A stretch of DNA of 64,000 nucleotides, taken from positions 771,931 to 835,930 of the forward strand of contig CAWHLH010000003.1 in the NCBI GenBank assembly GCA_963830105.1, in the 5' to 3' direction. Source of the stretch: an uncultured Gammaproteobacteria bacterium (lineage in GTDB: Bacteria; Pseudomonadota; Gammaproteobacteria; DATFLG01). Position 1 is the stretch's first letter, and each line of letters starts with the position of its first letter. Below are positions 13,393 through 59,284 of the stretch, in pieces. The translations under genes were made by a program, and so were the position numbers. The notes beneath the pieces were generated by a model, which saw only the letters and a list, made by a program, of their open reading frames with translations, had not been told where the DNA came from and ran no database searches.

Positions 13393-13400
13393 CTGCCCTC

Positions 13401-13796: not shown

Positions 13797-13862
13797 AAGT
13801 ACCTCCTAACTGACCTTGCGGGCATCCCGCTCCAGCACGTGACGCCCTACCCAGGCGTGGCC

Positions 13863-41860: not shown

Positions 41861-41876
41861 TGCAAATCCAGTGCCA
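41861..41876 (-). promoter_or_regulatory. Sigma-54 promoter for fliD, perfect consensus
   Basis: Minus strand reads TGGCACtggatTTGCA, exactly TGGCAC-N5-TTGCA. It starts immediately after the flaG stop and lies about 34 nt upstream of the fliD ATG. Confidence 0.75.
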
Positions 41877-42326: not shown

Positions 42327-43178
42327 TTAGCCGAGCAGCTTGAGTGCGAGCTGAGGTATCGAATTGGCCTGAGCCAACATGGATACACCTGCCTGCTGCA
42401 GGATCTGGGCCCTGGAAAGTGCGGCCGTCTGTGCCGCATAGTTCGTATCCACGATGGTGCTGCGGGCCGCGGTCAGATTCTGCTGAGAGTTGGTCAGGTT
42501 GGCTACCACCGAGTTGAAGCGGTTCTGGATGGCGCCGAAGGTGGCGGACTCGGAGGCCACGGTCTTGATGTCGGCCTGAATGCTGGTGATTGCCGCCGAC
42601 GCGGCCGACTGGCTGCTTACCTTGATGGTGTTGGTAGCAGTCAGGGTGCTGCTGAAGCTATTCAGTTTGTTCGTGCCGTTGGCAAGGTTCACACCGGTGG
42701 CGGTGATCTGGTCGTTCGCGCTACCGTTCTGGCCCACCTGGAAAGTGATGTTGGTGCTGCCCGATAGCAGCTGCGTTCCGGCGTATTTGGTGGTTGTGAC
42801 GATCTGGGAGATCTGCTGGGTGAGCTGGTCCACCTCCTTCTGGATACCGCCGCGCGCCGCCGAGGACACCGTGCCGTTGGCGGCCTCCACGGCCAGCTGG
42901 TTGATACGCTGCAGGGAGTCGCTGATCTGCTGCATGGCCCCGCCGGCAGTCTGCGCCAGGGAGACACCGTCGTTGGCATTGCGGACCGCCTGGCCCATGC
43001 CGTTGATATCGCCAGTCATCAGCTGAGACGAGTAGTAACCGGAGGCGTCGGATGCGGCGTTCTGCACCCGCAAGCCCGACGACAGCTGCTGCAGGGCGTC
43101 CGACAGCGAGCTCTGGGACTTCGAGAGGTTGTTCTGCGCGTACAGCGACATCAGATTGGTATTGATGGTAAGTGCCAT
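42327..43178 (-). CDS. fliC: Flagellin FliC (short, 283 aa)
   Basis: MALTINTNLMSLYAQNNLSKSQSSLSDALQQLSSGLRVQNAASDASGYYSSQLMTG… is the N-terminal D0/D1. C-terminal …TAALSRAQILQQAGVSMLAQANSIPQLALKLLG. The short central region is Ser/Thr-rich (NSFSSTLTATNTIKVSSQSAASAAITS). Confidence 0.95.
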   Translation of the reverse strand: MALTINTNLMSLYAQNNLSKSQSSLSDALQQLSSGLRVQNAASDASGYYSSQLMTGDINGMGQAVRNANDGVSLAQTAGGAMQQISDSLQRINQLAVEAANGTVSSAARGGIQKEVDQLTQQISQIVTTTKYAGTQLLSGSTNITFQVGQNGSANDQITATGVNLANGTNKLNSFSSTLTATNTIKVSSQSAASAAITSIQADIKTVASESATFGAIQNRFNSVVANLTNSQQNLTAARSTIVDTNYAAQTAALSRAQILQQAGVSMLAQANSIPQLALKLLG

Positions 43179-43863: not shown

Positions 43864-46275
43864 TCAGCCCGCCCCGGCAGTCTGTACGGCAGCCCGCTCT
43901 TCCGTCGTTTCCTGCCGACGGAGAATGATTTCGGCATTCTCAGCGGCGTTGATGGTGCGCTCGCGAAGTTCGCTGGAGAGGAATGGGCCATTGAACGCTT
44001 GTTGATACCAATGGCTGTATTCGCCGACAACGAAGTTCAGAAAATGCGACCATGGTCCGTAACCTATATTGAGGCAGGTCTGGCAACCCGCCGCATACTC
44101 TCCTGTCACCACCCCGTCTCGAATGAGACGGTATCCGGGACCACGCCAGATGTCCAAACCCGACTGCCGACTGACATCGCCCAGTGCCGGACTCAGGCTG
44201 TCATGGAAACAGCAAGTCTTCACGCGGCCGTTCTTACGCACATACAACGTCTTGAACGGCTCCATGCACGGATGATTGACCGGTTTGGCCGGTTTGGCCA
44301 TGCCGAGCAGGGCCGCCCGGTCAGAGGCCTCGGCATCGAACACCGTCGGCTGCTCTGCGCCGCGCTCACCCGGCTTCTTCGGCTTGACGGTCTTGGCAAC
44401 CGCCTTAAACTGAGTGATCGGAACGAACTCCACGGGTGTCGACGTGTCGCCGTCGCTGCCCCCCATCACAAAATCCGCCTTGCGTTGCCGCGCCTCCTCC
44501 TCATCGGCCACAACCGAGTGTTCGAACTGCTCGGCGCTCAGCCCGATGCCCAGTTGTTTCGCCAACGCCTTCGCTTGCTCGAGCTTCTGGCCCTCGACCC
44601 AGGGCCGGTTCACGGCAATGTGCCCCGAGACGACCGGGTTATCCGCCTGCCCATTCAACTGCTTGACGAAGATGTGATTCACTCCTAAGGATGCCATCAG
44701 CACCACGAATTGCGGCAGGCTGTCGATATGATGCTGGAACGACAGCGAATTGATGACAATGTTCGGAATCGGCGAGTTCAAGCGCCGCTTGGTCTCGGCC
44801 AAGCGGGCGATGCCACCCAGCACCTGCTCGAACACGCCACCCTGGTAGACGTTCTCATAGTCTTCCTTGGTGGCTCCCGAGAAGCTGATCGTGATGGCGC
44901 TTACCTTGCGTTCCACCAGAAATGTGCACAACTCTTCGGTAAGGTGCATGCCGTTGGTGAAGAAATCGATGGCGACTTCGAAAGGGGCCAGATAGTCAAT
45001 CAACTCACGGAACTGGGGGTGGATTGTGGGCTCTCCAAAACCGAAACAGTGCACGATCAGGGCGTGCTCAAGCACTTCGTCCATCGCACCGGCAAAAGCG
45101 TCCTTGTCGATGAAACCCCGCTCCTGGTTGCGCAACGTCTCGTACCGGTTCGGGTTCAATAGCGAGAAGTCGCGACACATGGCACACTTCAGATCACAAA
45201 CGTTGCTGACCTCGAGGAACACCTCGAGGGGATAGTCCGGATAGTCGCCCCCTTCGCTGAAATCGAGAAAGGACTGAAGTGTGTGACGCTTTGCGCCTGC
45301 AAGGCGACCCTCCGGTTGAGTCTCTTGCTCAGCCGACAACCGCCCTGGCGCGGGTGCGCCGTCGGTTTTCCGCCCGCTCGCATCGCGCAGCACCGACTGT
45401 TCGTCGCCTGCGGGGACAATCTCGCTGCCGTACTTGCTGGACAGCAGGACGTTCACCCTATCGATGGCCCGATTCGGCCCCGCATAGGCGGTTGCCTCAA
45501 GCAGCCCTTTGGAGTCGAGTCGTGGCCCGTAAATCAGTAGCGACGGCGTTATCTCGTCCGGATAGAACGCCGGGTGCACGTCCTCGTGAGTAGGGAATAC
45601 CAGTTCCAGAGGCAGCATTTGCACGGGAATTGCTTCCGAGTGCAACGCCAGTGTCAGCGCTATGGATTCCAGATCTCCCACTGTCCTATTGCCGAGACTC
45701 AGATAGTCGGCTTCTCTTCGAAGACGTAGTGAGTACGTACGCCATGCCTCGCGCAGCGGGACCGCAAATGCCCTCGGAACCACCATGAACGACGGATCGT
45801 AATAGGGGATCGACGGAGCATAGTCACTGATTGTCACGCAATGAGCGCTCGGCAGCTTCTGATCGAAGTGCGCGAACAAGCGCCGCCATACCGGAAGCGA
45901 AATAGGGCTGCGGCCGGCGGGTCGCACCGCAACCGCTCCCGGATTCAAGTACCCGGAAAAGTCGGCCGCAACCACCGAAGCGACATCCATTGCTACAAGC
46001 AGGTCCCAATTCCCATCGATGTGAAACAGTGGAGACCTGATGCCTGGCGCGTTGTGGTCATCATTGGCTGACGCCACCACCACCTCAATTCCATTGGCGT
46101 TCAGCATACTGCGTATTTGCGACGGGACGTCCGCAGAAAATACAGCCACAAAGCGGCTGGCGGTGATCGCACCGCCAAACTCCGCTGCCGTCGTGACAAG
46201 GATACTGGCCCGCAGCATGTCGGGCTCGTCCGGTCCTACGATGAAGGCAAATGCAACACGCTCGTTCATTTCCAT
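43864..46275 (-). CDS. Radical SAM / SPASM-domain enzyme fused to a ~330-aa N-terminal domain of unknown function (glycosylation island)
   Basis: Radical SAM core CDLKCAMC (Cx3Cx2C) preceded by DYPLEVFLEVSNV. C-terminal Cys cluster HPCMEPF…KTCCF…GCQTCLN is SPASM/twitch-like. A low-complexity K/P/A linker lies between them. Likely start is the ATG at 46275 (GAGGAA RBS). The track ORF starts at a TTG at 46305. Confidence 0.75.
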   Translation of the reverse strand: MEMNERVAFAFIVGPDEPDMLRASILVTTAAEFGGAITASRFVAVFSADVPSQIRSMLNANGIEVVVASANDDHNAPGIRSPLFHIDGNWDLLVAMDVASVVAADFSGYLNPGAVAVRPAGRSPISLPVWRRLFAHFDQKLPSAHCVTISDYAPSIPYYDPSFMVVPRAFAVPLREAWRTYSLRLRREADYLSLGNRTVGDLESIALTLALHSEAIPVQMLPLELVFPTHEDVHPAFYPDEITPSLLIYGPRLDSKGLLEATAYAGPNRAIDRVNVLLSSKYGSEIVPAGDEQSVLRDASGRKTDGAPAPGRLSAEQETQPEGRLAGAKRHTLQSFLDFSEGGDYPDYPLEVFLEVSNVCDLKCAMCRDFSLLNPNRYETLRNQERGFIDKDAFAGAMDEVLEHALIVHCFGFGEPTIHPQFRELIDYLAPFEVAIDFFTNGMHLTEELCTFLVERKVSAITISFSGATKEDYENVYQGGVFEQVLGGIARLAETKRRLNSPIPNIVINSLSFQHHIDSLPQFVVLMASLGVNHIFVKQLNGQADNPVVSGHIAVNRPWVEGQKLEQAKALAKQLGIGLSAEQFEHSVVADEEEARQRKADFVMGGSDGDTSTPVEFVPITQFKAVAKTVKPKKPGERGAEQPTVFDAEASDRAALLGMAKPAKPVNHPCMEPFKTLYVRKNGRVKTCCFHDSLSPALGDVSRQSGLDIWRGPGYRLIRDGVVTGEYAAGCQTCLNIGYGPWSHFLNFVVGEYSHWYQQAFNGPFLSSELRERTINAAENAEIILRRQETTEERAAVQTAGAG

Positions 46276-46562
46276 GCGAAATTCCTCTTCCACTCGTGGA
46301 ACCAAAGCCGACGAGAGACTGCTCCGAAGGGATGGCCGGCCTTCGGATCGCTCTTACAACGGCATGCCCCGAAGGTGCCTACGGTCGGATCGAAGGGGGG
46401 ACTGCCTCGAACTCGCAAGGCCATGCCCCCTTGTATCCCAAGAACCCCCAGACGGAATTAACGCGTCACGGGTGTTCGATCGATCTGCGCCCGCCCCCCC
46501 CCTTCAACGGATGCCACGATGCATTCCTGACGTCATCGCCCAAGGCCCAACGCAACTGGGGT

Positions 46563-49500
46563 TTACCTGTCCGACGCCGGCAGTAGCGCCTCCATCCACT
46601 CATCAAGGTGGTCATCGAGCATCCATTGGCTTCTCACCCATTCGCGCAGCTGCACTCCTTCCTGCTCCGCCGCGTCAAGATCGTGGACCCGGTCCCGTAT
46701 CGCATTGATCCATGCGCTGGCCGTATTGGCCACCCGCGTCACCGGAGCGTTGCGGTACGGTTCGATGTCCGTGCATATCACCGGGCAGCCCAGGACCCCG
46801 TATTCCAGCAGACGTAGATTGCTCTTGGCCTCGTTGAAGCTGTTGTACTCGAGCGGCGCCACGGCGATATCCAGACCCAGAGCCGCCAGGGCTGTTGGGT
46901 AGTCGTCGTACGGCACCGGCCCGTGGAACTCCGCCACATACGGCCGGATCGGCTCGGGGCACATGCCCATGAACACCCAGTCCACCTCCCGGGCGGTTTC
47001 TCGCACGACCTGATCCAGCAGTTGCAGGTCGCCTTCGTGCTGAAGCGCCCCCACCCATCCGATGCGCGGCCTGTCGCCGACTCGGCGGCGGACTTCCAGA
47101 TCGGCCCAGCGGTGATCCAGCCTGTTGGGCACGATGCGAATGTCACCGATGTAACTGCGGAAGTGATGGCCGAGCGCTTCAGTCGTGACAATCAGCCGAT
47201 CGCACAGAGACAGGCATTCTCGAAGGCGTTTCTTTATATCTTTATAGATGGTGGATCGTAGCGGATTCTTGGCGGGCAGCGCAGTCATCAGATCGTCCTG
47301 CCCGAAGGTGACAAAGGCGCCACCGCCGCGCCGGTACTGCCGCAGCGCCTCGATGTGCGCGTCGTGGACCGTGTTGTAGAGCAGCAGGCTGTCAACGTCC
47401 AGCCTGGCCAATTCGACCGGGCCCGGCACGCGCACCTGGTCGGGGTAAGTTGGAACCTCTGCCGTGTTGGCAATCCCCCGGCGCCCAAGGACATGAAGGG
47501 GTTGGGAGCCACGATACTCCCAGGACCCGGCGGAGCCGAACGCCATCCCCAGTATGCGCGGCAGGTCGTGGTTGTCCCGCGCAGACCACGCGGGCAGATC
47601 GTCCTCCAACGCCACGTCCGGTCGATGCAGGGACAAAGCCGGATGAAACGCCGGATCGTTGGCGAGCCGCGGCAACCAGCGCGCCCGCAGCCCCATCACT
47701 TCCTTCTCCGCTCCCTGCCCCGTGGTATCGGGCTGTCCGGCAAATATCGTCACGTGCGGCGTCCATATCACGCGTCGCCCGCGCTCCTGGGCCCGCAGAC
47801 ATATTTCCGTATCGCCGTGGTGGCGATTCGGCGCCAGCATGTCGATACCTAAATCGGCGTACAGCGCCTTCTCGATCAACAGGCCATCCCTGGAAACTGC
47901 TGACATCTCCTGGGCAACCTGAGCGCGCCCGAAATAGCCAGGTGCCGAATGGGTGAGCCCCGGCTGCAGCGGGGCCGCTATGCCGTCGGTACCCAGGCCA
48001 AGAATCTTACCGATGCCCCGAATGGACTGATCCGCACCGACGACGCGAGCACCGACAATGCCGGCCTCGGAGGGTAGCGCCTGCGCCACCATCCGCTCGA
48101 CCCAATTCGGTTGCACCACGCGCATGCCGTCGCACACGAACAACAGATACTCCGCCTCCACCGCGCCAATATCCTGCGGCGTCTCGAGCAGACCGATCCG
48201 GGCGTCCCGGTCGGCCAATACCCTTAAACCCTGCGCCACACTGTGATCCCGGTGCGCCAGACTAAGCCAGACGCGCATATCCGGATACGTCGTCGTCTCC
48301 AGAACCGATTGCACGCTGTTGGTGACTTCGTCAGCGCTGCCGCGGCCATGGACGACGACTGCGACTTGCGGCAAGCGCATCGGCTCGTATTCAACGCGCC
48401 AAGTCTCGCGCGCAATCCCCGGTTGTACAGCCGCCTTTGTGCCGCAGCGACTCAGATGCTCGGTCACTATGGCCATCCCGAGGACCGTCGCCTTCTCGCT
48501 GGACGTGCGGTTCGCGTCGAGGCGATGGTAGAGAATGTGTGGAATATGCCCGACCGCGCCGTCACCGCACCGTTCGATGATGCGCAACACGGCATCGTAG
48601 GCCTCCATTCCGTCGAGGCAAACGTAACCTCCCAGTGCGAGCAGTACCTCACGCGCCACCAGACAAAACCGCCCCACATAGGCCTGCCCGCGCAGCCATT
48701 CGAGATTGACGTCCGGCTTCAGGCGTGGCTCGTACTCACGTCCGTCGGCTCCAATCCGATCCTCGTCGGTGTATACAAACCGCCATTTCTCGTGCCTCTG
48801 GATATAGTCAGCGCATTGCAGAAGCAGCGAAACGTCGAACCGATCCCCCGGCCCCACCAGGCCGACCCAATCCGCCTCGACGTCACCGATGACCCGATTC
48901 ACTGCCTCGAGCCATCCGCCCCCGTCGACCTCCACCCACCGTAGCGCGGGATGCTGCGAGAACAGGGGATCGGGCGCTGGGCAATCCGCCACGACCGAGA
49001 GCTTCCAGCGCCCGTAGTGCTGCGCCGACACGGATTCCAGGGTGTCCGGCAAGCCGGACATATCCTTTTCCGACACCACCATCACCAGGTGCATCCCCGG
49101 CTGCGATGCCTTCCCCTCCACCGCCTGCCGCAGCTGATCGAGCTGCTCCGCCGTCGGTGCGCGCGCTGCGCGCCACCTTTCATACGCTTCGACCAACCGG
49201 TCCCTGACCTTTTCCGGCGACAACTTGTTGTCGGCCACATCGAGCAGCCCCGTCACCAACTGGCGCGACCCATCCCTGCCATGGAGCAGTTCGGAATAAA
49301 CAGCGTCATAGTCGCCGACGTTGTCCTCCATTGACTTGTGCACCAACCCCTCGAGCCCTGCGTGGACGCCCGTGAGCGAACTGCGGTCCTGCGCCAGTTC
49401 CAGGAGGCGCTTCGCCAATGCAGCCGGGTCCGAGGGCGGGACCAGAAAACCGGTAACCCCGTCGACCACCCGTTCGGGAATGGCCCCCACCGCCGCCGCG

Positions 49501-52469
49501 ACAACCGGCACACCCATGGCCTGGGCCTCGCTCACCGTCAGACAGAACGTTTCGTCCCACACCGACGGTATAATGACAACGTCCACGCGCCCAAGGAGCT
49601 TCGGCAGTTCTTCAGCCGAATAATTCCCGTGCAGCCTCAGGCCAAGCGATACCGCTCGTGCCTTGATGGTATCCTGGACCCCGCCGAACACTTCGACCTG
49701 CACCGCTTCGCCGCGCATCCGCTCCACAGCATCGAGTACCGTGTATGCCCCCTTGCGCTCGGTGAGGTTGCCGAGAAATCCGACCCGAAAGGTGCTGGTG
49801 CGCGGCGGGCGCGCTGACCTACCCTTTACTACGACGCCGTGGGGAACGACGCGGATCTTCGCACCCACCGTTTCCCCCAGCGCACGACAGAACTGGTCGC
49901 GCACGAAGGCCGACGGGGCAATAAGAATATCCGCCGCCTCCAGCACCGACTGGACCAGCGCCTGACGCTCGCCCATATACTGATTCAGCGCCGCGGGCGC
50001 GTGGATGCCGCTCAATTCACGCTTGGCGGACAGGCAACGCATGCACTGCGGGTCGGCGCCGTTGCTCTGCTCCCGTCCACAGCGCCTGTATTCCGGAAGC
50101 ATCAAGTTGTACTCGGGGCACAGCAAGAAATAGTCGTGGAGCGACACTACAACTTTCTTGCCGAGCGCCTTGGCCAGTACCGGCAACAGCAGACTGTCCC
50201 AGTGCGCCAAATGCTGAAAATGAACGATGTCGTAGTCACCCCCGGCTACAAAGCGGGTGAAGTTCCCTTCCACAATCGCATTGTCAAGATCGCCTGCAAT
50301 GCCGACAAACCGCTCCCTGGCCACCACGTTGCGCTCTCTGAGTTCAACGACCCGCAGGTGGGAATCACGCTGCTCCGAATGAAATTCGACATAGTCGCTT
50401 CTTTCGGCTTTTGTATTCCGGCCAGGGAACATGACCGTCGAGCGGTAGCGCTTTTCGAGACCGTCTATCAAACGCCGGGTATGCAACTCCGTGCCGCCCG
50501 GCACATCGAAGCTGTGAATCACATGCAGCACGTGCGGCCGGACTTCGCCCGGTTTGCGCTCCAGCGCCGTCTGCAGGCGCTCCTGCACCTCGCGAAGCGG
50601 ATTATGATGGCAGAAGACCTGCACCGCGACGTCGTACTTCGGCCAGCGCTTCGCGAGCACTTGCGCGTTGCGCAGTCGCCGCTTGCCAATCTGTTTTATG
50701 GAACTGAAGGAGGCCTCGCCATAATGGTGCACGTAGGCGTCGTCACAGCAGACGGTTTCGATTCCTACGTGCCAGGCGCGCATGCAGAAATCGCTCTCCT
50801 CGCCGTACCCAAGACCGAAGACCGAATCGAACACCCCGACCCGGTCGAGGGTTGCGCGGGTGATGAGCATGCAGAATCCCACGGCTGTCGGCAAACGCGG
50901 ATATGAACGCGGCGCATTCTCCGCCACGATCGCCGCAAACCTGTCCACCGACATGTCAGGCGGCAGCCGGTTGGCGGCGCTCATGACCGGAACCGAAAGA
51001 ATCGTGGCATTGTTCGACAAGGGCGAAACTATGCCGATTGCCGGATCGCTGAGGCGACAACGGTCCAGACGTGCCAGCCACCCGGCCGTCACCTCGGTAT
51101 CTGAGTTCAAGATCACCACATCATGGCGCGACAGCATGAAGCCCCGATTGACGTTTCCGATGAACCCGAGATTGCTGTCCGAGGTAACCACGCGCACACG
51201 CGGATCGGAAGATTCAAACCCCCTGAGCAATGGCAGGACCCGCGGATCGGAACTCGCGTCATCGAGGAGAATTACACAGTGCTTGGGATCGGTGTACCGC
51301 AACACGCTTTCCACGCAGCGCTTGACGTGATCGTAGGCGTTGTAGATCGGTATCAGGATATCGTATGCGGTCTCACTCTCCGCCAGCGCTTCGGCCGGCG
51401 GCATCCTGCGGACCAGCGTGAGCGCCCGATCGATGGCACTCCTGATACGCACGGCCGCACGGTCACGCTCTGGTCCCTGATTCGAGCTCTCGAGCACCGA
51501 CTGGTTCGCTGAGCGAGACTTGGACTCGATCGCATCAAGCCGACGCCGCAGTTGCTCCGGATCGCGGTCGTAGTTCGTGCTATCGCCATAGCGCGGCGTA
51601 GCCAGCAGCGCAACGGCCAGCTCATCAAGCCTTTCGACGGGCGAGCACTGTGCGATCGCAGCTTGCAAATTCACTACTCGCTCGCGGGGAACGAACAGCA
51701 GCGAGCTTTCCTCGGCCACGCCGAACATGTTATCCGGATTGCCGCGGAAATTTTCTATGTTGAATGCCGGGAAACGACAAAAGTATGCAGCGTAGTCGTA
51801 TTCTCTGAAGAACTTGACGATATCCCAACCGCGCTCAAGATCGTTGCACTCCAGATAGACCACCGATCGGGAGCGCGCCAGGTTTTGCTGCGCGCCGCGA
51901 AGGACGTCAAGTTCCATCGCCTCAACATCGATCTTGATCAGATCGACGTTTTCCTCGCACACACTGTCGAGCGTGATGACGGGTACCGTCAACATCTCCA
52001 TGTCCGGCTGGGCAGGGTTCTGGCCAGCGGCCAGAGACAATGCCCCGACATTCTGTCGTTGTGTGGGATCGATGGCAGGGATCGATACCGTCCCCGCAAC
52101 GCACGAGACCGCCGCATCGAACGCCCGGACGTTGCGGATTGCGTTCTGGACCAGATTCCGTGTTAAGACCTCGAAGACCTGCGGCTGGGCCTCGACCGCA
52201 TAGACGCGTCCGCTATCGCCGGCAATGCTCGAAAGGGCGAGGGTGTGAGTGCCTACGTTCGCACCGGCATCAATCACGACGCCGCCCGGCGGTACGAATT
52301 GCGCGAGGAACTCTATCTCGGCCTGCGCCCACTCGCCGTAGGCCTGCAAGGCATCGCCGATGGGACCGTCGAAGGGGAAAAATGACATCGAACCGTACCG
52401 GCACGGCAGGGTCTGCACGATATCATCCATCGGCTGCAACGCGGTTGTCGTATCAACGCTACGATTCAT
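46563..52469 (-). CDS. Giant (1968-aa) multidomain flagellin-glycan enzyme: FkbM methyltransferase - GT2 - GT4 - GT2 - GT2 - C-terminal GT-B-like domain
   Basis: Residues 60-250: VVIDAGANVGTHTLALS…VYAVEAQPQVFEVLTRNL…IKIDVEAMELDVLRG is an FkbM-family SAM methyltransferase. Then GT-A segments with DxD-like motifs (LLDDASSDP, NSDTEV; YTDED). A GT4-like region (…ETFCLTVSEAQAMGVPVVAAAVGAIPERVVDGVTGFLVPPSD). The C-terminal ~350 aa are paralogous to the C-terminus of the next gene. Start ATG at 52469 lies 11 nt after the stop of the upstream gene. Confidence 0.8.
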   Translation of the reverse strand: MNRSVDTTTALQPMDDIVQTLPCRYGSMSFFPFDGPIGDALQAYGEWAQAEIEFLAQFVPPGGVVIDAGANVGTHTLALSSIAGDSGRVYAVEAQPQVFEVLTRNLVQNAIRNVRAFDAAVSCVAGTVSIPAIDPTQRQNVGALSLAAGQNPAQPDMEMLTVPVITLDSVCEENVDLIKIDVEAMELDVLRGAQQNLARSRSVVYLECNDLERGWDIVKFFREYDYAAYFCRFPAFNIENFRGNPDNMFGVAEESSLLFVPRERVVNLQAAIAQCSPVERLDELAVALLATPRYGDSTNYDRDPEQLRRRLDAIESKSRSANQSVLESSNQGPERDRAAVRIRSAIDRALTLVRRMPPAEALAESETAYDILIPIYNAYDHVKRCVESVLRYTDPKHCVILLDDASSDPRVLPLLRGFESSDPRVRVVTSDSNLGFIGNVNRGFMLSRHDVVILNSDTEVTAGWLARLDRCRLSDPAIGIVSPLSNNATILSVPVMSAANRLPPDMSVDRFAAIVAENAPRSYPRLPTAVGFCMLITRATLDRVGVFDSVFGLGYGEESDFCMRAWHVGIETVCCDDAYVHHYGEASFSSIKQIGKRRLRNAQVLAKRWPKYDVAVQVFCHHNPLREVQERLQTALERKPGEVRPHVLHVIHSFDVPGGTELHTRRLIDGLEKRYRSTVMFPGRNTKAERSDYVEFHSEQRDSHLRVVELRERNVVARERFVGIAGDLDNAIVEGNFTRFVAGGDYDIVHFQHLAHWDSLLLPVLAKALGKKVVVSLHDYFLLCPEYNLMLPEYRRCGREQSNGADPQCMRCLSAKRELSGIHAPAALNQYMGERQALVQSVLEAADILIAPSAFVRDQFCRALGETVGAKIRVVPHGVVVKGRSARPPRTSTFRVGFLGNLTERKGAYTVLDAVERMRGEAVQVEVFGGVQDTIKARAVSLGLRLHGNYSAEELPKLLGRVDVVIIPSVWDETFCLTVSEAQAMGVPVVAAAVGAIPERVVDGVTGFLVPPSDPAALAKRLLELAQDRSSLTGVHAGLEGLVHKSMEDNVGDYDAVYSELLHGRDGSRQLVTGLLDVADNKLSPEKVRDRLVEAYERWRAARAPTAEQLDQLRQAVEGKASQPGMHLVMVVSEKDMSGLPDTLESVSAQHYGRWKLSVVADCPAPDPLFSQHPALRWVEVDGGGWLEAVNRVIGDVEADWVGLVGPGDRFDVSLLLQCADYIQRHEKWRFVYTDEDRIGADGREYEPRLKPDVNLEWLRGQAYVGRFCLVAREVLLALGGYVCLDGMEAYDAVLRIIERCGDGAVGHIPHILYHRLDANRTSSEKATVLGMAIVTEHLSRCGTKAAVQPGIARETWRVEYEPMRLPQVAVVVHGRGSADEVTNSVQSVLETTTYPDMRVWLSLAHRDHSVAQGLRVLADRDARIGLLETPQDIGAVEAEYLLFVCDGMRVVQPNWVERMVAQALPSEAGIVGARVVGADQSIRGIGKILGLGTDGIAAPLQPGLTHSAPGYFGRAQVAQEMSAVSRDGLLIEKALYADLGIDMLAPNRHHGDTEICLRAQERGRRVIWTPHVTIFAGQPDTTGQGAEKEVMGLRARWLPRLANDPAFHPALSLHRPDVALEDDLPAWSARDNHDLPRILGMAFGSAGSWEYRGSQPLHVLGRRGIANTAEVPTYPDQVRVPGPVELARLDVDSLLLYNTVHDAHIEALRQYRRGGGAFVTFGQDDLMTALPAKNPLRSTIYKDIKKRLRECLSLCDRLIVTTEALGHHFRSYIGDIRIVPNRLDHRWADLEVRRRVGDRPRIGWVGALQHEGDLQLLDQVVRETAREVDWVFMGMCPEPIRPYVAEFHGPVPYDDYPTALAALGLDIAVAPLEYNSFNEAKSNLRLLEYGVLGCPVICTDIEPYRNAPVTRVANTASAWINAIRDRVHDLDAAEQEGVQLREWVRSQWMLDDHLDEWMEALLPASDR

Positions 52470-52480
52470 TTCACCCTACT

Positions 52481-55400
52481 CTAGCTGTAATGCCGGGCGA
52501 TCGAGACCGGCCGGCACTCCGCAACCGGGCGGGTCTTGTCACCGGGCGTCAGGGACGCCATCCAGTCGTCCAAATGGTCCTCGAGCATCCATCCGTTCAG
52601 CACCCAATCCTTCAGCCTGTCCCCTTCCTGCGCGGCGGCGCCCAGGTCATGCGCGCGTTCGCGAATCGCGTCGATCCACGCGGCAGGATCATTGCGTACA
52701 CGCTTGACTGGGCCGCCACGGTACGGTTCGATATCCGTACACACCACCGGCCAGCCCAGAACTCCATATTCCAGGATACGCAGATTGCTCTTTGCGATGT
52801 TGAATGGATGGTCTTCCAGGGGTGCCACGGCCAGATCCAGATTGAGTGCAGCGAGCCTGACCGGGTACTGGGCGAATTCCCCGAACTCGTGGACCTCCCG
52901 CACGAACGGACGCAATGCATCCGGACACATTCCGAAGAACACCCAATCCACCTCTTTGGCGGTGGCCTGGACGACCGGGATGAGCAGTTCGAGGTCGCCC
53001 AGGTGCTGCTGACCGCCGGCCCACCCCACTCGGGGACGAGGCCCCTGACGGCGCAGCGAACGTAGCGTGCCCCAGCGGGAGCGTGGCAGATAGTTGGGAA
53101 GGACACGTATGTCGTCGATGATGTCCCGATACACCTCCGCGATGGGGTCAGTGGTAACGATCAACCGATCGCAGCAGCTGAGCGCTCGGCGGGTGCGCGC
53201 CTTGATATCACGGAAAAGCAACTTCCGACGGGAATTCTTTTCCGGTACCTGCGTTTTCAGGTCTTCCATGTCGAAGACCCGGAATGCCCTGTTGAAACGC
53301 TTGTAGCTTTCAAGGGCGTCCAGGTGCGCGTCATCCAAGGTCCCCTGCAGCAGCAGGGTGTCCGGATCGAGACGTTCCAGTTCGACTATCGAGGGTACCC
53401 GCGGCCAGCCCTCCTGGGGTGCGGCAAAACCGCAGCGGGCACGCGCAGCGGCGGCCAACGCGTTCAAAGGCGCCAGAACGCGGTACTCCCCGCAGCCATA
53501 GGTGTCGACGGGGATACCGAGGATACGGGGGCGGTCGTTAAATGACGGGTCCCAGCTCGCGGTCGACTCGGTGCGCGTGCGGAAGTCCCTGTGGGACAGG
53601 CTCAGGTTTCGGTTGTAATACGGATCGTGCGCCAGATCTCCGAGCCAGCGTTGGAGCATCCGGTTTCCCTCTTCCCCGCAGCCCGGTCGCTCGCCTCCCG
53701 CGCACTGCGGCGGTTGCCAGCCCAGCAGCGCGTGCGGTGTCCACACAACTCGCAGGCCCCGGTTGCGCAACCGAAGGCAGAGATCGGCGGGGTACCAAAC
53801 GTTGGGAAGCATCTGTTCGTCGAAGGGGCCGATGGCTTCGAAAGCAGCGCGGCGGACCATCAAACACGCGCCAGGCACGGCGGACACGCCTTGATCGGTC
53901 AGGGCGCGCCCAAAATAGCCCGGATCCCATGCCGACAGACCTGCGAATGCATCTGCGGCTACGCCGCCTATCCCCAGCAGCAGGGCACTGTGTGCCACCG
54001 TTTTGTCCGGCCCCACAACCCGTGGCGCCACCACGCCGACATCCGGTCGCTGGGCATGGTTGAGCAGTTCTTCCAGCCAGGTTTCCTGCACAAACACCGA
54101 GTGCCTGTCGATGAAAACCAGATATTCACCTGTCGCCACCTCCACTGCCGCATTGTAGGCGGCGGCGCGATTGCCCGGGGTCGGCGCCGTCACCACCCTC
54201 ACGAGTCCCTGGTGGCGCAACAAGTCCAGGTAGTCGTAGGTGTCTTCATCCTCACTACCCTCGTCCACGATCAGCAATTCCATGTGTGCATACCGGGTAG
54301 CGTCGCGCAGGCTGTCGATGAAGATTTCCAGGACATGGAGGTCGTCACGGACAGCAACAATGACCGAGACCATGGGATGAGCGGCATGCTGATAGCAGAC
54401 CCGCAGGGTCTGCGTCGCCAGCCCCTCGGCGACCTCCGCTGTCTGTCCGCAGCGCTCGAGATGGGCTGCCAACGCCGCACGGCGCCACGGCATAAGCCGG
54501 AGGTCGCCGCGCAGGGCTTCGGTGACGGGTCCCCGATGATACAAGACATCGGCGACATGCCCGATGCACTCGGTCCCGCAACGCTCCAGCACCTTCAATG
54601 CCAGTTCGTAATTCCGAATTCCCGGCTCCGAGCTGTAGCCCCCGGCTGCCAGCAACACCTCCCGACGCACGAGACAGAAACTGCCGACCCCGTCCTGGGA
54701 ACGCAGCAGGTCAGGGTCGGCATCTGTCTTGAACCACGGGTCTGCGCGCCTGCCGGCGGCGTCCATCCGGTCCTCGTCACTGTAGATCAAGGCCCAGTCC
54801 GGAGACTGTTGGAGATGATCGATACAGGCAAACAGGGCATTCGGTGCCAGCCGGTCGCCGGGGCGGATCAGCCCGACCCAGTCGGCGTCGGTATCTGCAA
54901 TCGCCCGGTTGATGGCGGACTCCGGATCGTCCCCACACTGGTACCACTCCAGGTTGGGCTGTTCGCCGAACAGGGCGTCCGGGCAAGGCTCCTCAGCGAC
55001 AACGGTCAACCCCCACCCGGGATAGAGCTGGTCTGAGAGCGACTGCAGGGTAGGGGCCAGAAGTTGCGTTTCGCCGGTCCGCAACGGTGCGATGAGATGG
55101 ACGGAGGGACGTACACGCCAGTTCAGCACCATACGTTCGGCCAGAAGTTCCCCGTCAGACTCGCGCAGGGCGTAGATGCGGGTCCAGTCGGCATAGTCAA
55201 GGGGCCGGTCTGGCCCCTGTGCATCACCATCGAAGGGCATCGGCGGCGGTGCCGGCGAGAGGGCCGCAAACACATCCTCCAGCGCATCGAGTTCCAAAGC
55301 CGCCTGATCGAGAAATGCCGCGTCCGGTGCCACATCACCGGCCGCGACGCTTGCGAGATGGCCGTACACCCCATCCACGAGGGATCGAAGCCCTCGCGGC

Positions 55401-57529
55401 TCGCCAGCCGAGACGGCGTCGCTGTGGTGACGTAGCGCGGGCGTCAGAAACGCCTCGACGTCGGTCTCAACCCGCTCATCGGAAAGCGGCAATCGGAGAC
55501 CAAGCGAACCGGCAATACGCGATACCGTGCCACGCCAATCCGAAAGCAGCTGATCGTAGGTCGTAAAGACTCGCAGTGCTCCTCGACTATGGCGCTCGGC
55601 CTCCAGCACATGACGCAGCCAAAGCAACAGCCCCCGATTGCGGGACAACCCGTCCCGCCGTTGCAGCGAGTCCGCGACCTCGTATGGGCTTCTCAGCGGA
55701 ATAACATACCTGGGAGCCGCACCCATATCGGCCAGAACCCGTTGCCAGAGCGGCAGCAGCCGACACAGACGCGGATCCTTTGCACCCCACAGCGGGCGCC
55801 CCGCGAACTCCCGTCGGAGAGTGGCGCCAAGCTCGTGCTGCAGAGCCCACAGTCGGGGCCGTTCCCAACACCCTTCCGGCAGACGCCGCGGATCCGACCA
55901 TGACATGCCCAGTTCGCCCAGCACCTGATCATTCAGGACCATGATGTCGGCGTGTTCCCAAAAGCCGCGTTCATTGGCAGCGTTGCCAGCCAGTAGCGAG
56001 CTGCCGAGTTCGACCCCGTGCAGGTTCAGCACTCGGGTCAGAGCTGAGGTGCCGCTGCGGTGCATACCCAGAACCAGCAGCGCGGCAGGTTCATCCGTGC
56101 TTGGCTCGGGGCGCGCCTGGGGATACGCGAGTCCCTTGCCGGCTGCACCGCAGCTCCCGGTGTACTGGCACAAGGTCAGCTCACGGGGAGTCGGCAGCGA
56201 CAGAACTTCCAGAGGAAGCTCATCGCTGAACCGGCTCTGTCGGTCCGGGACCGCCTCGCTGGCGTCCCCGGAACGGTACGCCACAACCAGGGCGCCCGGG
56301 CGAAGATACGGAGCGTACTCCTGCAGCTCCGCAGCCTGTCCGGTTGCCATACCATCCAACACCACCAAGTCGACGCCTTCGCGCAACGCCGGCTCGGCGG
56401 GCGCGTCATCCAGCAGTCGGACGATCTGGTCTACACCGGCGCGGCCCAGGCGTTCGGCCGCAATCCTCCGGCAGTCAGGATCTGCTTCGACACTGATCAG
56501 CTGACCGATGCCGTTTTGTGCCAACGCGCGGCCAATGGCTTCGCCCACATAGCCGCGCCAGGCACGCGTCTCCACGACCAGTCGCGGCTTGACGGCGCGC
56601 ACAAGCCCGTACAGGAACTCCAACGTCTCCACATCGGCGGTCCAACCATCGAACATCGACCACAGGCGGGGTTCACGGGCCGAAGGCGCAGCTAATGAAA
56701 GCTCCGGATAGATCGACTCCCCCTGGAACAGCAGCGAAGCGCGCTGCGGCCTGGGCCGTGTGCGCCAGGCCTCCATGCGGCTGGACAAACCTTCGGTTCC
56801 AAGCCACGGCTTTGCATCGTAGCTGCGCGCATAGTACTCCGCACGATCGTCCAGCTCCCCTGCCGCGTGACCGAGATTACGGGCGAGATAGCGAGGCGCC
56901 CAGGCGCACATATAGCCGGCATGTCTGACGGACTCGGAAAGCGCCACGTCGTCCGGCAGCAGTACGCCATGCTTATTGGTGTTGGAGCCAACCCTGATGC
57001 CGGCGTCCCACAGCTCCCGTCGCAACAGACAACTGGTGCCGACATTGCCGACAGCCTCATAGAGAAAGTGCCCGTTCTGGCTGCGGAGCACGGCGGGCTT
57101 GGTTTGCCAGACCTCTTCGTCCTCCGGCACTGGCGCACACAGCGACAACTGACCGAGTCCGGGGAAACAGGCGAACAACTCAAGCGCTTCTTCCACCCAC
57201 CCGGAGCGGTACTCGAAGTCATTTTCGCTGACATGCAGTAGCCCGGCGCGACTTTTCCGAAGTCCCTCGTTGATTGCGGCCCCGCCGATGTTCTCCGGCA
57301 GGTAGATCGCCTGCGCTGCAGGTGTGGCCGCACAAAACTCTTCGATGACGGTACGGGAACCGTCCGACGACCCGTTGTCCACGATAAACAGCTCATACGG
57401 GACGGTAACGGTGTCGCGGTAGCTTTCCAGCGTACGACGCAACAGGTCGGCCCGGTTCCAGTTGAGCACGGTTGTGCTGATCACCGGTGCTGACGCCTTT
57501 TCGCCCACGCATAGATCTCCTCTGTACAT
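52481..57529 (-). CDS. Giant (~1680-aa) multidomain flagellin-glycan enzyme: GT2 - class I SAM methyltransferase - sulfotransferase-like - GT2 - GT2 - C-terminal GT-B-like domain
   Basis: VISTTVLNWNRADLL…FIVDNGSSDGS is GT2. LVVETRAWRGYVGEAIG…ISVEADPD…VDLVVLDG is a TylF/class-I methyltransferase. LLVLGMHRSGTSALTRVL…WGAKDPRLCRLL…YVIPLRSPYEVADSL resembles the PAPS 5'-PSB (RSGTS) and 3'-PB motifs of sulfotransferases. Two more GT-A segments (…LLIVDEGSEDED…). C-terminal domain shared with the 1968-aa protein. Start is uncertain: ATG at 57529, or a GTG at 57508 preceded by an AGGAGA RBS. The track ORF begins at 57622. Confidence 0.75.
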   Translation of the reverse strand: MYRGDLCVGEKASAPVISTTVLNWNRADLLRRTLESYRDTVTVPYELFIVDNGSSDGSRTVIEEFCAATPAAQAIYLPENIGGAAINEGLRKSRAGLLHVSENDFEYRSGWVEEALELFACFPGLGQLSLCAPVPEDEEVWQTKPAVLRSQNGHFLYEAVGNVGTSCLLRRELWDAGIRVGSNTNKHGVLLPDDVALSESVRHAGYMCAWAPRYLARNLGHAAGELDDRAEYYARSYDAKPWLGTEGLSSRMEAWRTRPRPQRASLLFQGESIYPELSLAAPSAREPRLWSMFDGWTADVETLEFLYGLVRAVKPRLVVETRAWRGYVGEAIGRALAQNGIGQLISVEADPDCRRIAAERLGRAGVDQIVRLLDDAPAEPALREGVDLVVLDGMATGQAAELQEYAPYLRPGALVVAYRSGDASEAVPDRQSRFSDELPLEVLSLPTPRELTLCQYTGSCGAAGKGLAYPQARPEPSTDEPAALLVLGMHRSGTSALTRVLNLHGVELGSSLLAGNAANERGFWEHADIMVLNDQVLGELGMSWSDPRRLPEGCWERPRLWALQHELGATLRREFAGRPLWGAKDPRLCRLLPLWQRVLADMGAAPRYVIPLRSPYEVADSLQRRDGLSRNRGLLLWLRHVLEAERHSRGALRVFTTYDQLLSDWRGTVSRIAGSLGLRLPLSDERVETDVEAFLTPALRHHSDAVSAGEPRGLRSLVDGVYGHLASVAAGDVAPDAAFLDQAALELDALEDVFAALSPAPPPMPFDGDAQGPDRPLDYADWTRIYALRESDGELLAERMVLNWRVRPSVHLIAPLRTGETQLLAPTLQSLSDQLYPGWGLTVVAEEPCPDALFGEQPNLEWYQCGDDPESAINRAIADTDADWVGLIRPGDRLAPNALFACIDHLQQSPDWALIYSDEDRMDAAGRRADPWFKTDADPDLLRSQDGVGSFCLVRREVLLAAGGYSSEPGIRNYELALKVLERCGTECIGHVADVLYHRGPVTEALRGDLRLMPWRRAALAAHLERCGQTAEVAEGLATQTLRVCYQHAAHPMVSVIVAVRDDLHVLEIFIDSLRDATRYAHMELLIVDEGSEDEDTYDYLDLLRHQGLVRVVTAPTPGNRAAAYNAAVEVATGEYLVFIDRHSVFVQETWLEELLNHAQRPDVGVVAPRVVGPDKTVAHSALLLGIGGVAADAFAGLSAWDPGYFGRALTDQGVSAVPGACLMVRRAAFEAIGPFDEQMLPNVWYPADLCLRLRNRGLRVVWTPHALLGWQPPQCAGGERPGCGEEGNRMLQRWLGDLAHDPYYNRNLSLSHRDFRTRTESTASWDPSFNDRPRILGIPVDTYGCGEYRVLAPLNALAAAARARCGFAAPQEGWPRVPSIVELERLDPDTLLLQGTLDDAHLDALESYKRFNRAFRVFDMEDLKTQVPEKNSRRKLLFRDIKARTRRALSCCDRLIVTTDPIAEVYRDIIDDIRVLPNYLPRSRWGTLRSLRRQGPRPRVGWAGGQQHLGDLELLIPVVQATAKEVDWVFFGMCPDALRPFVREVHEFGEFAQYPVRLAALNLDLAVAPLEDHPFNIAKSNLRILEYGVLGWPVVCTDIEPYRGGPVKRVRNDPAAWIDAIRERAHDLGAAAQEGDRLKDWVLNGWMLEDHLDDWMASLTPGDKTRPVAECRPVSIARHYS

Positions 57530-58381
57530 CGGCCCAACCGGTCTCCAGCGCGATCTGACCGTTTGGCAGCAGGGCGGCGACGGAAATTCGACACCCAATG
57601 GAACAATCAAGCAAAGCAACAACGGGCCGAATCAGTTGGTTAGCGCTGGTTGTACGAAAATGGCCGATCCGGTTGCAGCTCGCTGGCTAGCTGCTGCAAG
57701 TGCTATGCCACTTGGGTTGGGATTCGGCCCGCCACTGATGGGCCGCGGCGCTCTGACTGACCTTCCCCGGCCCCTTACCCCCCGCAACTGCGCCAGCCGT
57801 TCTGACGGCGACCGCACCGGCGGCGCCCACCATTTGCATCGGCGAAGTACGGGGTGCAGGGATGCACAAGGGACATGTCCGTTTCGCTGCCAATCACCCC
57901 GAACGAGGGGTCGCTGCGCGGGCTTTGCAGGGTGCGCCCTGGGGATAGCGAGCACTGCGCCGCCCACAGCGTTGCGATTTTTCACCTGCCACTTGATGGG
58001 CACCAACCATGAACGCCGGCTTGCACGCGGACCCCGCTTGCCGGACACCGGCGACAAGTTGCCGTCTCAGGGTCCGAGGCGCCGCCACCGGGGCGGCCCG
58101 GATACCCCCCGGACCGCGCTTTCCACGGGGCGGTCGCGCAATCGGACTCGCGAAGAACGCGAGCGGGCTCGCATCTTTCAACACACATGGCTTGTGTCGG
58201 GGAGGAAGTGCCGGCACTCGGACGGGTGCGTTTCGGACGCTGACGCAGCCGGACCTTGCTGGTCCGCAACAGGCAGTTCCACCGGGGTAACCGGTAATGG
58301 CCTTGTCCGCCGCCCTTACAGGCTCAACCGATTTCGCGTCTGGTCGACGCAGTCACGCGAAAAGAATCTCGTAATCAACAC

Positions 58382-59284
58382 TCAGGGCAGGTAATTGAAC
58401 AACGACAGCCCCTGAATCTTCCCAAAGCTCTGCTGGGCGGCCTGCAGCGCAGTCATCTGCTGCTGAAACTGGCTGATGGCCTGGGTGTAGTTCAAGTCCT
58501 GCACCTGGGAGAGGTTCTTCTGGACCGCCAGCAGGGAGCTGGAGCTGAGTGTCTGCTGATCGCTGACGGCGTTCTGCCGCGATCCGATGTCCGTCTGCAC
58601 CGACAGCACATGCTGGAGGGCGTTGCCGATGTCGGTGATGGACGAAGCGCTGGGGCTGTTCGATTGCAGCGAAGTGACGAAGTCCTGGAGCGTCTTGAAG
58701 ACGCTCTGGCTGCCCCCGCTGCTGGTTGGAGCGCTCATGAAGACGCTGGAACCGGCGTCGCTTACCGCAACCTGGCGCGACGCGCCGATTTGAACGAAGC
58801 GTTGGGCTTGATCGCCATTGTAGGTCACCGTTCCGCCATTCATGGTAAATGGCTGCTGACCGCTCCGGTAGCCGCCGAAGATATACTGGCCGTTGGTGTC
58901 CTTGGTATTCGCCAACGCCTGGAGTTGTTGCAGGCTCTGCTGGACCTCCTGGGCGATGCCCTGGCGGTCCTGTGCACTCTGGGTACCGTTGGTGGCCTGT
59001 ATTGCCAGGGTATGCGCACGCTGCAGCAGGTTCACCACCGAATCAAGGGTGTTGCTTTCCAGGGTCAGCTGCTGGCTGGCGTAATCGCTGTTGCTCTGAT
59101 ACTGATTTGTTTGGGAGACCGACTTGTCCAGACGCAGGGCCTGGGTAGTCCCGGCCGGGTCGTCGGCGGGCGAAAGGATGCGCTGGCCGGTGGACAACTG
59201 TTGCTGGGTTCGGGCGGCGCCCGTCTGCTGGTCGAGGATGGCGTTGACCCCTTGCTGGAACAACTGGGCAGTGGAGATGCGCAT
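58382..59284 (-). CDS. flgL: Flagellar hook-associated protein FlgL (HAP3)
   Basis: MRISTAQLFQQGVNAILDQQTGAARTQQQLSTGQRILSPADDPAGTTQALRL is the flagellin-like N-domain typical of FlgL. 300 aa. Confidence 0.92.
   Translation of the reverse strand: MRISTAQLFQQGVNAILDQQTGAARTQQQLSTGQRILSPADDPAGTTQALRLDKSVSQTNQYQSNSDYASQQLTLESNTLDSVVNLLQRAHTLAIQATNGTQSAQDRQGIAQEVQQSLQQLQALANTKDTNGQYIFGGYRSGQQPFTMNGGTVTYNGDQAQRFVQIGASRQVAVSDAGSSVFMSAPTSSGGSQSVFKTLQDFVTSLQSNSPSASSITDIGNALQHVLSVQTDIGSRQNAVSDQQTLSSSSLLAVQKNLSQVQDLNYTQAISQFQQQMTALQAAQQSFGKIQGLSLFNYLP

Follow-up and report, generated by a model that had tools for sequence, protein, structure and literature searches.

Between the flagellar genes flgL and fliC, in a 64-kb window of DNA from an uncultured gammaproteobacterium (by the window we mean the whole stretch that was analysed), lie three genes that we call P3, P2 and P1, and we think that they are likely to constitute an island for the O-glycosylation of flagellin. 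Gene content was taken from the listing of open reading frames (ORFs) and from the NCBI gene calls on the identical contig (GCA_049581805.1, 'MAG: Gammaproteobacteria bacterium', where MAG stands for metagenome-assembled genome), and both bear out the claim of an earlier reading of the bare sequence, the first-pass annotation, that these three genes stand alone in the interval. All are on the minus strand, as is every feature of the island located below, and together they fill a 13.8-kb stretch: P3 lies at 52481-57508 (1675 aa), P2 at 46563-52469 (1968 aa) and P1 at 43864-46275 (803 aa, from a raw ORF of 813). The upstream boundary is flgL (58382-59284; TIGR02550, 298.8 bits), and on the other side lies fliC (42327-43178), which encodes the presumed substrate, a 283-aa flagellin with Flagellin_N and Flagellin_C domains whose best NCBIfam match is the 282-aa PRK12802. 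The gaps measure 873 nt between flgL and P3, 11 nt between P3 and P2, 287 nt between P2 and P1 and 685 nt between P1 and fliC. Between them, the three proteins hold ten glycosyltransferase-like domains, two methyltransferases, one sulfotransferase-like domain and one radical S-adenosylmethionine (SAM) core, and a hydrophobicity check found no membrane-type segment in P1, P2 or P3.

P3 and P2 are indeed the two giant multidomain glycosyltransferases of the first-pass annotation, with a radical SAM protein beside them, a description that is supported by Pfam, by NCBIfam and by hhalign, the profile-profile comparison with which we classified segments that have no above-threshold Pfam match. For P3 we chose a GTG start because of its GAGGAG ribosome-binding site, within a raw ORF that reaches 57622 (1713 aa). 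The protein opens with a glycosyltransferase family 2 (GT2) domain (56753-57493; Glycos_transf_2, E 3.9e-14 for the isolated segment), and in the whole protein this family is matched in two stretches with 129 bits. A class I SAM O-methyltransferase follows (56243-56632), of the Methyltransf_24, COMT-like kind (29.8-32.3 bits against a cutoff of 26.3). It had been described as TylF-type, which has to be given up: at E<=1 the segment matches Methyltransf_24 and Methyltransf_3 only, the TylF family not being among its matches, and in the PDB it finds the O-methyltransferases 3tfw and COMT. Next comes the sulfotransferase-like domain (55343-56095), which is assigned from a Sulfotransfer_3 match below the cutoff, from its homologues and from its motifs. 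Nine of ten homologous domains match Sulfotransfer_3 (best E 2.2e-7) and four match Sulfotransfer_1, and a PDB profile search with the P3 domain matched sulfotransferases alone, weakly (E 0.18). Read from the sequence, its motifs are GMHRSGTSAL and RSPYEVADS, the latter with an Arg-to-Ser spacing of +8; in the family alignment GMHRSGTS is invariant or nearly so, and R139, P141 and S147 are conserved. We take the GMHRSGTS loop and the R..P.....S motif to be of the type that binds 3'-phosphoadenosine 5'-phosphosulfate (PAPS), as the 5'-phosphosulfate loop and the 3'-phosphate Arg...Ser respectively.

P2 begins with an FkbM-family methyltransferase (51792-52280; TIGR01444 at 104.3 bits against 37.7, and Methyltransf_21, PF05050, at 66.2 against 22.7), continues with a GT2 domain in which the canonical LNSDT motif is conserved (50655-51359; Glycos_transf_2, 77 bits), and goes on to a GT4 domain of the GT-B fold (49284-50501; Glyco_transf_4, Glycos_transf_1 and Glyco_trans_1_4 (121 bits), with PDB matches to MshA, PimA and similar enzymes). 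Both methyltransferase domains proposed at the outset are therefore present, as, to judge by its homologues and motifs, the sulfotransferase probably is too. The domain-by-domain hidden Markov model searches suggested for checking them put FkbM, GT2, GT4 and Methyltransf_24 above their cutoffs and Sulfotransfer_3, in P3, below.

Both proteins then end in the same module of about 860 aa, with 42% identity between residues 1123-1965 of P2 and 838-1694 of P3, and judged from its sequence this module consists of a degenerate GT2 domain (A1), a second GT2 domain (A2) and a GT-B-like C-terminal domain. A1 (54443-55111 in P3, with RPGD at the DXD position; 48450-49103 in P2, with GPGD) has no significant Pfam match; it is a GT2 homologue by hhalign, at 98.7% against A2 (E 1.5e-16) and 97.3% against the GT2 domain of P2, and in P2 it was placed by comparison with P3, hhalign and motif frequencies. 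A2 of P3 (53528-54376) is matched by Glycos_transf_2 at residues 1086-1264 and by hhalign against GT2 at 99.8%; its homologue in P2 (47670-48377) is divergent, with a weak match to Glyco_tranf_2_3 (E 0.014). The C-terminal domain of P3 (52541-53527) is 54% identical to the copy in P2 (46566-47564) and is a GT-B homologue, as hhalign finds at 97.7% against GT4 (E 1.7e-12, 241 columns); the P2 copy also matches Glyco_trans_1_4 at E 1.2e-5, its 26.0 bits falling just under the cutoff of 27. When full-length P2 and P3 were searched against PDB sequences, no match was reported within A1 or the C-terminal domain of either.

This module belongs to a large family. An exhaustive HMMER search against 1.84 billion representatives of 50%-identity clusters returned 9103 cluster representatives at E<=1e-30, and in each of the best 150 the module is complete and forms the very C-terminus, preceded by 0 to about 2450 residues. 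The lengths of these 150 proteins span 888-3292 aa (median 1548 aa); 66 of them have at least 1600 aa and 30 at least 1900. The whole architecture of P2 recurs in four proteins (P0002-P0005) at 49-72% identity, and that of P3 in a Chromatiales MAG (locus L032). Given these numbers, the packing of so many domains into two polypeptides can no longer be called unusual, as the first-pass annotation had it, and its 'assembly-line-like' is a metaphor only, since nothing shows an ordered, colinear process. In a protein search the P3 module alone finds glycosyltransferases of about 1190-1199 aa at 33-40% identity over 90-98% of the query, in many Pseudomonas species and in Xanthomonas campestris, Frateuria, Fulvimonas and Kosakonia; the Pseudomonas proteins among them (1190-1198 aa) are 36-40% identical to it at 95-98% coverage, with E down to 1e-170. 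A class of GT2-GT4 proteins of about 1150 aa with a similar-looking C-terminal part was also considered as the Fgt1 class, Fgt1 being the large flagellin glycosyltransferase of Pseudomonas syringae, and was rejected, because two of its members, P0102 and P0114, lie in non-flagellar contexts of the Acetobacteraceae type and because it is the A1-A2-C-terminal module that is found in the genuine relatives from Pseudomonas.

The third protein, P1, is a fusion of another kind, with an N-terminal GT-A-fold domain (45586-46275), a radical SAM core (44596-45243; Radical_SAM, 35 bits against 29.5) and an auxiliary Fe-S domain (44056-44298). The N-terminal domain belongs to no sequence-level family and has a conserved GDFS in place of a clear DXD; searches of its sequence against Pfam at E<=10 and against PDB profiles found nothing, and it was resolved by a fold search alone, in which it is structurally similar to nucleotide-diphospho-sugar transferases. 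Foldseek on the whole P1 model was uninformative on this domain because only radical SAM matches came back, and these mix sugar-acting and peptide-acting enzymes: DesII, SkfB, SuiB, BlsE, anSME, TigE, PqqE and EpeE. The core, modelled by AlphaFold with pLDDT above 90, has the CX3CX2C motif (C360, C364, C367), all three cysteines being invariant in 36 P1 homologues. For the auxiliary domain the first-pass annotation had written SPASM, and Pfam does report a SPASM match (36.6 bits). In the same 36 homologues, however, only C670, C688/689, C731 and C734 are conserved, which falls short of the seven-cysteine SPASM motif (CX9-15GX4C ... CX2CX5CX3C ... C), and these five cysteines align with the single-cluster twitch domain of BtrN, so that we would rather speak of an abridged, twitch-like domain. 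BtrN is the single PDB sequence match of P1; the case for it rests on the register of the cysteines and not on the score, since E is only 0.019. P1 shares with BtrN, DesII and BlsE the CX3CX2C core, and DesII and BlsE are among its best structural matches, whereas identity to these enzymes is 12-15% and P1 adds the GT-A-fold domain and a long linker.

The family to which this radical SAM part belongs is repeatedly fused to sulfotransferase (Sulfotransfer_1, Sulfotransfer_3, Stf0), glycosyltransferase, Methyltransf_24, TPR and B12-binding domains, and it co-occurs with the module in flagellar and in autotransporter loci. In one 3006-aa protein (P0008) glycosyltransferase modules and a P1-like radical SAM domain (45% identity) even share a single chain. 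Fusions of radical SAM/twitch and sulfotransferase domains in particular were seen in P0133, P0136, P0152, P0200, P0209, P0211, P0214 and P0217, and again in P0224, P0225, P0238 and P0240; as far as we could find, this recurrent pairing is undescribed. Among open-access papers we found none that links a sulfotransferase or a radical SAM enzyme with flagellin glycosylation.

Where do the relatives of the module occur? We scanned one genome per species with an alignment of ten C-terminal-domain sequences, the P2 copy first (a 20-sequence alignment with distant members, at about 25% identity, proved too diverse for this purpose), and this brought up at least 567 relatives at species level. Throughout the best 79 loci A1, A2 and the C-terminal domain form one uninterrupted unit. 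Linkage to fliC was counted in 70 of the best loci, those with at least 1.5 kb of downstream flank: fliC follows within 10 kb in 53 of the 70 (76%), and in 41 of them within 1 kb, a statistical linkage that speaks for a flagellar role. The hosts include Thiohalobacter, Thiogranum, Acidiferrobacteraceae, Competibacteraceae, Methylomonas, an Azoarcus MAG, Nitrospirota and the alphaproteobacterial Stellaceae and, among cultured bacteria, Chromobacterium, Aquitalea, Vogesella, Paludibacterium, Leeia, Dechloromonas and Denitromonas. Fusions of a sulfotransferase with the module adjoin fliC in several lineages (L003/L005, L032, Stellaceae L060 and L076).

The slot itself recurs as well, with different contents. 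The close homologues P0005, P0006 and P0126 sit between flgL and fliC too, with other accessory genes beside them; one such island holds a PhyH dioxygenase, a P1-like radical SAM protein, a TPR protein and two giants, a second a free-standing FkbM protein and two giants, and a third a radical SAM protein, a TPR protein and one giant. This comparison of island content across relatives, which the first-pass annotation had recommended, shows differing accessory sets in one slot, which is typical flexible-island behaviour. A P1-like radical SAM protein and a TPR protein of about 434-452 aa were noted together in the flgL-fliC islands of L002 (2683-8009) and L087 (10001-13647), of which L002 adds the PhyH-type dioxygenase; neither the TPR nor the PhyH gene is found in the present window. 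Nearer to the experimental literature, a locus of Pseudomonas sp. PDM29 reads flgL, a 1190-aa homologue (P0288), Methyltransf_24, KAS III and fliC (a 280-aa flagellin), an arrangement of the P. syringae type, and the Xanthomonas homologue lies within the flagellar cluster, beside an ATP-grasp enzyme and two methyltransferases.

The best-studied counterpart is in P. syringae, where fgt1 and fgt2 lie upstream of fliC, Fgt1 rhamnosylates six serines of flagellin (residues 143-201) and mutation of fgt1 leaves the flagellin without its glycan (PMC3927599, PMC3402453). The glycan there is a trisaccharide, even though fgt1 and fgt2 both encode large multidomain proteins, and the genes for its modified viosamine lie in a separate island, away from fgt1 and fgt2 (PMC3927599). 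The island described here shares with that of P. syringae its slot and its flanks (flgK-flgL ... fliC-flaG-fliD-fliS-fliT-fleQ), and with the Pseudomonas islands that contain the KAS III gene 'orf3' it shares the enzyme itself: the C-terminal 860 aa or so of P2 and P3 are, along their whole length, homologous to the flgL-adjacent glycosyltransferase of about 1190 aa, at the 36-40% identity already given. Fgt1 of P. syringae is, we take it, also 1190 aa long, and to our knowledge enzymes of this type have hardly been studied biochemically. The flagellins are similarly short, at 283 aa here and 280 aa in PDM29, and the Methyltransf_24 enzyme that is free-standing in Pseudomonas and Xanthomonas is fused into P3. 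Both large genes of the present island have the module. Unlike the P. syringae island, this one has extra FkbM, GT2 plus GT4, GT2 and sulfotransferase domains fused on; it has no KAS III gene, and the GT-A/radical SAM protein is added.

Other systems resemble it in part. The b-type island of Pseudomonas aeruginosa PAO1 (PA1088-PA1091) likewise lies between flgL and fliC and fuses a glycosyltransferase to a glycan-tailoring activity (FgtA is a GT2 joined to a phosphotransferase), and a methyltransferase, PA1088, contributes to the final glycan (PMC11833859). The tailoring in PAO1, however, is a phospho-linked N,N-dimethylthreonine, and that island has no sulfotransferase, FkbM domain or radical SAM enzyme. 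Flagellin glycosyltransferases of the Maf and FlmG types also O-glycosylate Ser/Thr of flagellin in the cytoplasm from genes near that for flagellin (PMC4065374), but they are unrelated enzyme families and need nucleotide-sugar pathways of the pse/leg kind, none of which is encoded in this window. As for domain number, in WbbM, WbdA/WbdD and the K4 chondroitin polymerase several GT-A and GT-B domains act successively within one cytoplasmic polypeptide, with methyl or phosphate capping; these multidomain O-antigen enzymes of ABC-transporter-dependent pathways, in contrast, build lipid-linked polysaccharides, and the similarity is at the level of fold or family only.

Taken together, position, module family and fliC linkage support the original call of a flagellin glycosylation island in the slot used by Pseudomonas, and we are fairly confident that the 13.8-kb stretch is an Fgt1-type O-glycosylation island of the Pseudomonas kind, expanded by domain fusion. 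It is a domain-rich form of a known island and not a new kind of system; the novelty is that flagellin islands contain a sulfotransferase together with a radical SAM enzyme, and that the same toolkit sits beside autotransporter genes in purple sulfur bacteria. The flagellin, short and Ser/Thr-rich as had been said, contains 22.6% Ser+Thr overall and 30% in residues 140-205, where there are 20 such residues, and we infer that it is the substrate. One module would attach the first sugar to Ser or Thr in the central region of flagellin, in the cytoplasm and before export by the type III system, and the other module might then lengthen the chain, together with GT2 of P3, GT2 and GT4 of P2 and possibly the GT-A-fold domain of P1. 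With SAM as donor, FkbM and the COMT-like domain would O-methylate the glycan, and the sulfotransferase would sulfate it with PAPS. P1, its GT-A fold binding a nucleotide sugar or the glycan, would most likely alter a sugar by radical chemistry (an oxidation, a deoxygenation or the like), so that an unusual residue would be possible without classical nucleotide-sugar genes in the island. The first-pass annotation had seen no such genes, and there are none in the window; its further step, to a glycan of common sugars, is weak, because the viosamine genes of P. syringae lie elsewhere (PMC3927599) and because P1 could make an unusual sugar. With 11 nt between them, P3 and P2 are probably co-transcribed, perhaps from a sigma-54-type promoter like those of the neighbouring flagellar operons: a promoter-like site, TGGCATAGCACTTGC (TGGCATAGCACTTGCA), lies at 57696-57710 on the minus strand with one mismatch, about 190 nt upstream of the P3 start, and similar sites lie upstream of fliD (41862-41876, a perfect match), fliL and fliK.

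Several observations weigh against this interpretation. The organism is known as a MAG only, and what ties its island to the characterised Fgt1 of P. syringae is a set of positional orthologues from the genomes of other Pseudomonas. The Sulfotransfer_3 (PF13469) match of P3 reaches E 1.2e-4 to 2.7e-4, or 21.7-22.9 bits against the Pfam cutoff of 27. Some of the glycosyltransferase-like domains may be non-catalytic, because A1 has lost the first Asp of its D-x-G-D motif in both P2 and P3, where it is replaced by Gly and Arg respectively, and because the N-terminal domain of P1 has no clear DXD. The structural neighbours of P1 include the peptide-modifying enzymes SuiB, SkfB and anSME. The sigma-54 pattern occurs 84 times in the window against 90 expected, with no enrichment over chance, for which reason the site upstream of P3 is suggestive by its position at most. 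Lastly, no flagellar neighbour was found in 17 of the 70 related loci, some of them from the non-flagellated Parabeggiatoa and Thiomargarita, and the module is therefore not strictly flagellin-specific.

As to how many of the ten glycosyltransferase-like domains actually work, it is quite possible, if not what we favour, that several of them are dead scaffolds or substrate binders and that the glycan is short, with one to three sugars, say, as in Pseudomonas. The missing Asp of A1, which 18 of 41 aligned family members have, is in keeping with this, and with RPGD or GPGD at that position A1 may have lost activity or have another way of working. The weak GT2 match of A2 in P2, the N-terminal domain of P1 and the P. 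syringae trisaccharide, made in the presence of two large multidomain enzymes, all lean the same way. On the other side, the second Asp of D-x-G-D is invariant and the YxDED motif of A1 invariant or nearly so, the matches of GT2 and GT4 in P2 and of A2 in P3 are well clear of their thresholds, and the C-terminal domain retains an invariant K...E pattern (FNxAKSNLxxLEYG), which, from general knowledge, we take to resemble that of active GT-B enzymes.

A second alternative concerns P1 alone, which might modify the flagellin polypeptide (by epimerisation, Ser oxidation or a cross-link) in place of a sugar, its GT-A-like domain serving to dock the enzyme or to transfer a glycosyl group. The SPASM match in Pfam is what one might expect of such an enzyme, as are the best partial NCBIfam matches, which are maturases of protein or peptide cofactors, and the presence of SkfB, SuiB, anSME, PqqE and EpeE among the Foldseek neighbours; moreover, this radical SAM family always lies beside, or is fused with, enzymes of protein-linked glycans, so that a protein substrate would be at hand. 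We nevertheless think it unlikely. The auxiliary domain has the four-to-five-cysteine twitch pattern of BtrN and not the seven cysteines of the peptide maturases, the sugar-acting DesII and BlsE are among the top structural matches, the fusion partners of the family (GT-A, glycosyltransferase, sulfotransferase, Methyltransf_24) are those of sugar or glycan tailoring, and the flagellin has no Cys for thioether chemistry.

The non-flagellar loci deserve a closer look, since the first-pass annotation had held that the same genes outside a flagellar context would weaken the flagellin-specific interpretation, and this is in part what the 17 loci show. In these loci the downstream genes are unrelated ones (nosZ, an MCP gene, an efflux protein gene, dnaE). 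In Allochromatium tepidum (L088, AP024563.1, 10001-19039), a Chromatiaceae MAG (L040, about 6000-15025) and L004 (about 9956-16603), the module, together with GT2-GT4, flanks a gene for an autotransporter of 473-476 aa in place of fliC; the three autotransporters are 52-62% identical to each other, and L088 and L040 also encode a radical SAM enzyme of the P1 family, fused to a sulfotransferase in L088. These loci suggest that the system glycosylates other exported proteins too. The giant sulfur bacteria have proteins of about 1460-1495 aa in which Pfam finds a sulfotransferase, the A1-A2-C-terminal module and a second sulfotransferase (L025, 7328-11815, and L033, 7472-11860; the third locus, L022, 7421-11893, was found by tblastn only; Parabeggiatoa, Thiomargarita, Thiotrichaceae), among housekeeping and signalling genes such as those for 2-oxoglutarate dehydrogenase and a STAND kinase. 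In addition, L086 (10001-21557) encodes P0122, a full-length P1 homologue with GT-A-like and radical SAM parts, outside any flagellar cluster, beside a 584-aa GT2, an 1183-aa GT4-GT2 protein with the module and an Asp/Arg hydroxylase. One could read the 17 loci, the autotransporter genes, the sulfotransferase-module-sulfotransferase proteins and P0122 to mean that the enzymes serve another glycoconjugate (a secreted or surface protein, or a polysaccharide) and that their flagellar location is incidental or regulatory, but we hold this to be highly improbable here, where flgL and fliC enclose the genes with no other candidate substrate gene, given that fliC lies just downstream in 76% of related loci, that P. 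syringae fgt1 mutants lose flagellin glycosylation (PMC3402453, PMC3927599) and positional counterparts in other Pseudomonas carry the module, and that the autotransporter loci look like a toolkit retargeted to whichever exported protein adjoins.

Because flgL and fliC enclose the genes in the present window, we prefer to see an Fgt1-type flagellin island here and a portable protein-glycosylation toolkit, retargeted, in the non-flagellar loci. A bolder version, which is tempting but doubtful, would have a sulfated and O-methylated flagellin glycan, one residue of which is made in situ by a new class of enzyme, in which a GT-A fold that binds a nucleotide sugar or the glycan is joined to a BtrN-like radical SAM dehydrogenase or editing enzyme and which replaces nucleotide-sugar genes, and the same toolkit retargeted to an autotransporter in purple sulfur bacteria and to some other substrate in giant sulfur bacteria, and would thus amount to general cytoplasmic O-glycosylation of exported proteins that is not tied to the flagellum.

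Was the island acquired recently? The first-pass annotation saw no sign of horizontal acquisition, and in one respect this stands: the 64-kb window contains no transposase or integrase gene (and no nucleotide-sugar or PAPS-synthesis gene either), and the repeats around the island, direct or inverted, are all short and look like matches by chance. In another respect it does not, in that GC content at third codon positions is 0.70-0.75 in P1, P2 and P3 against 0.79-0.86 in 11 flanking genes (fliC, fliD, fleQ, flgL/K/J/I, fliF, fliI, flhA, cheA) and island content varies between relatives. The lower value is consistent with an exchanged flexible island or with weaker codon bias, despite the absent mobile-element genes. 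Elsewhere in the non-coding sequence there is little to report. The gene-free gaps of 873, 287 and 685 nt have no meaningful translated or nucleotide similarity to the fetched loci (tblastx was marginal, at E of about 1e-4 to 1e-3), and in the GC-rich flgL-P3 gap (57509-58381) the sigma-54-like site is the sole recognisable feature. Scans for sigma-70 promoters and terminators gave counts at or below shuffled expectation, no convincing sigma-28 site was found upstream of fliC, and no Rfam family was matched in the window.

The surroundings are those of a flagellar and chemotaxis supercluster that fills the whole window on the minus strand. At its high-coordinate end are flgH, flgI, flgJ, flgK and flgL; Pfam, NCBIfam and the gene calls give the order flgI-J-K-L, P3, P2, P1, fliC, flaG, fliD, fliS, fliT, pilZ, fleQ, fleS; beyond pilZ come fleQ, fleS, fleR, fliF to fliR, flhB, flhA, flhF, fleN and fliA, and at the far end cheZ, cheA, cheB, motA, motB, a parA-like gene and cheW. 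Between fliK and fliL, a 754-aa protoglobin-PAS-GGDEF-EAL protein (24625-26889, minus strand) may be a c-di-GMP enzyme that senses gas or redox state. Where the chemotaxis genes end, on the low-coordinate side, there is a second FliK-like gene (Flg_hook) on the opposite strand, beside a gene for a pentapeptide-repeat protein and two ORFs with no Pfam match; the four ORFs of this neighbourhood lie at 3324-4664 (plus strand) and at 2292-3260, 850-1890 and 1979-2707 (all minus). A protein identical to P2 is encoded on the NCBI contig JBAUSR010000113.1 (57,401 bp, shorter than the 64,000-bp window) and one identical to P1 on a 937-kb contig from another source, which means that a more complete assembly exists, and this could reveal the nucleotide-sugar and PAPS genes of the organism.

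Flagellin glycans shape motility, surface behaviour, and phage and host recognition, and the Fgt1-type family that seems to build them has thousands of members, typically of 1200-2500 aa, in environmental Proteobacteria and Nitrospirota. The module of about 860 aa furnishes a handle for annotating the islands that are now labelled only 'glycosyltransferase' or 'FkbM family methyltransferase'. If the chemistry proposed here is true, sulfated glycans on bacterial flagellins would be new chemistry, as would a radical edit to a sugar attached to protein, and the loci with autotransporter genes point to a broader, testable part for the system in the O-glycosylation of proteins.

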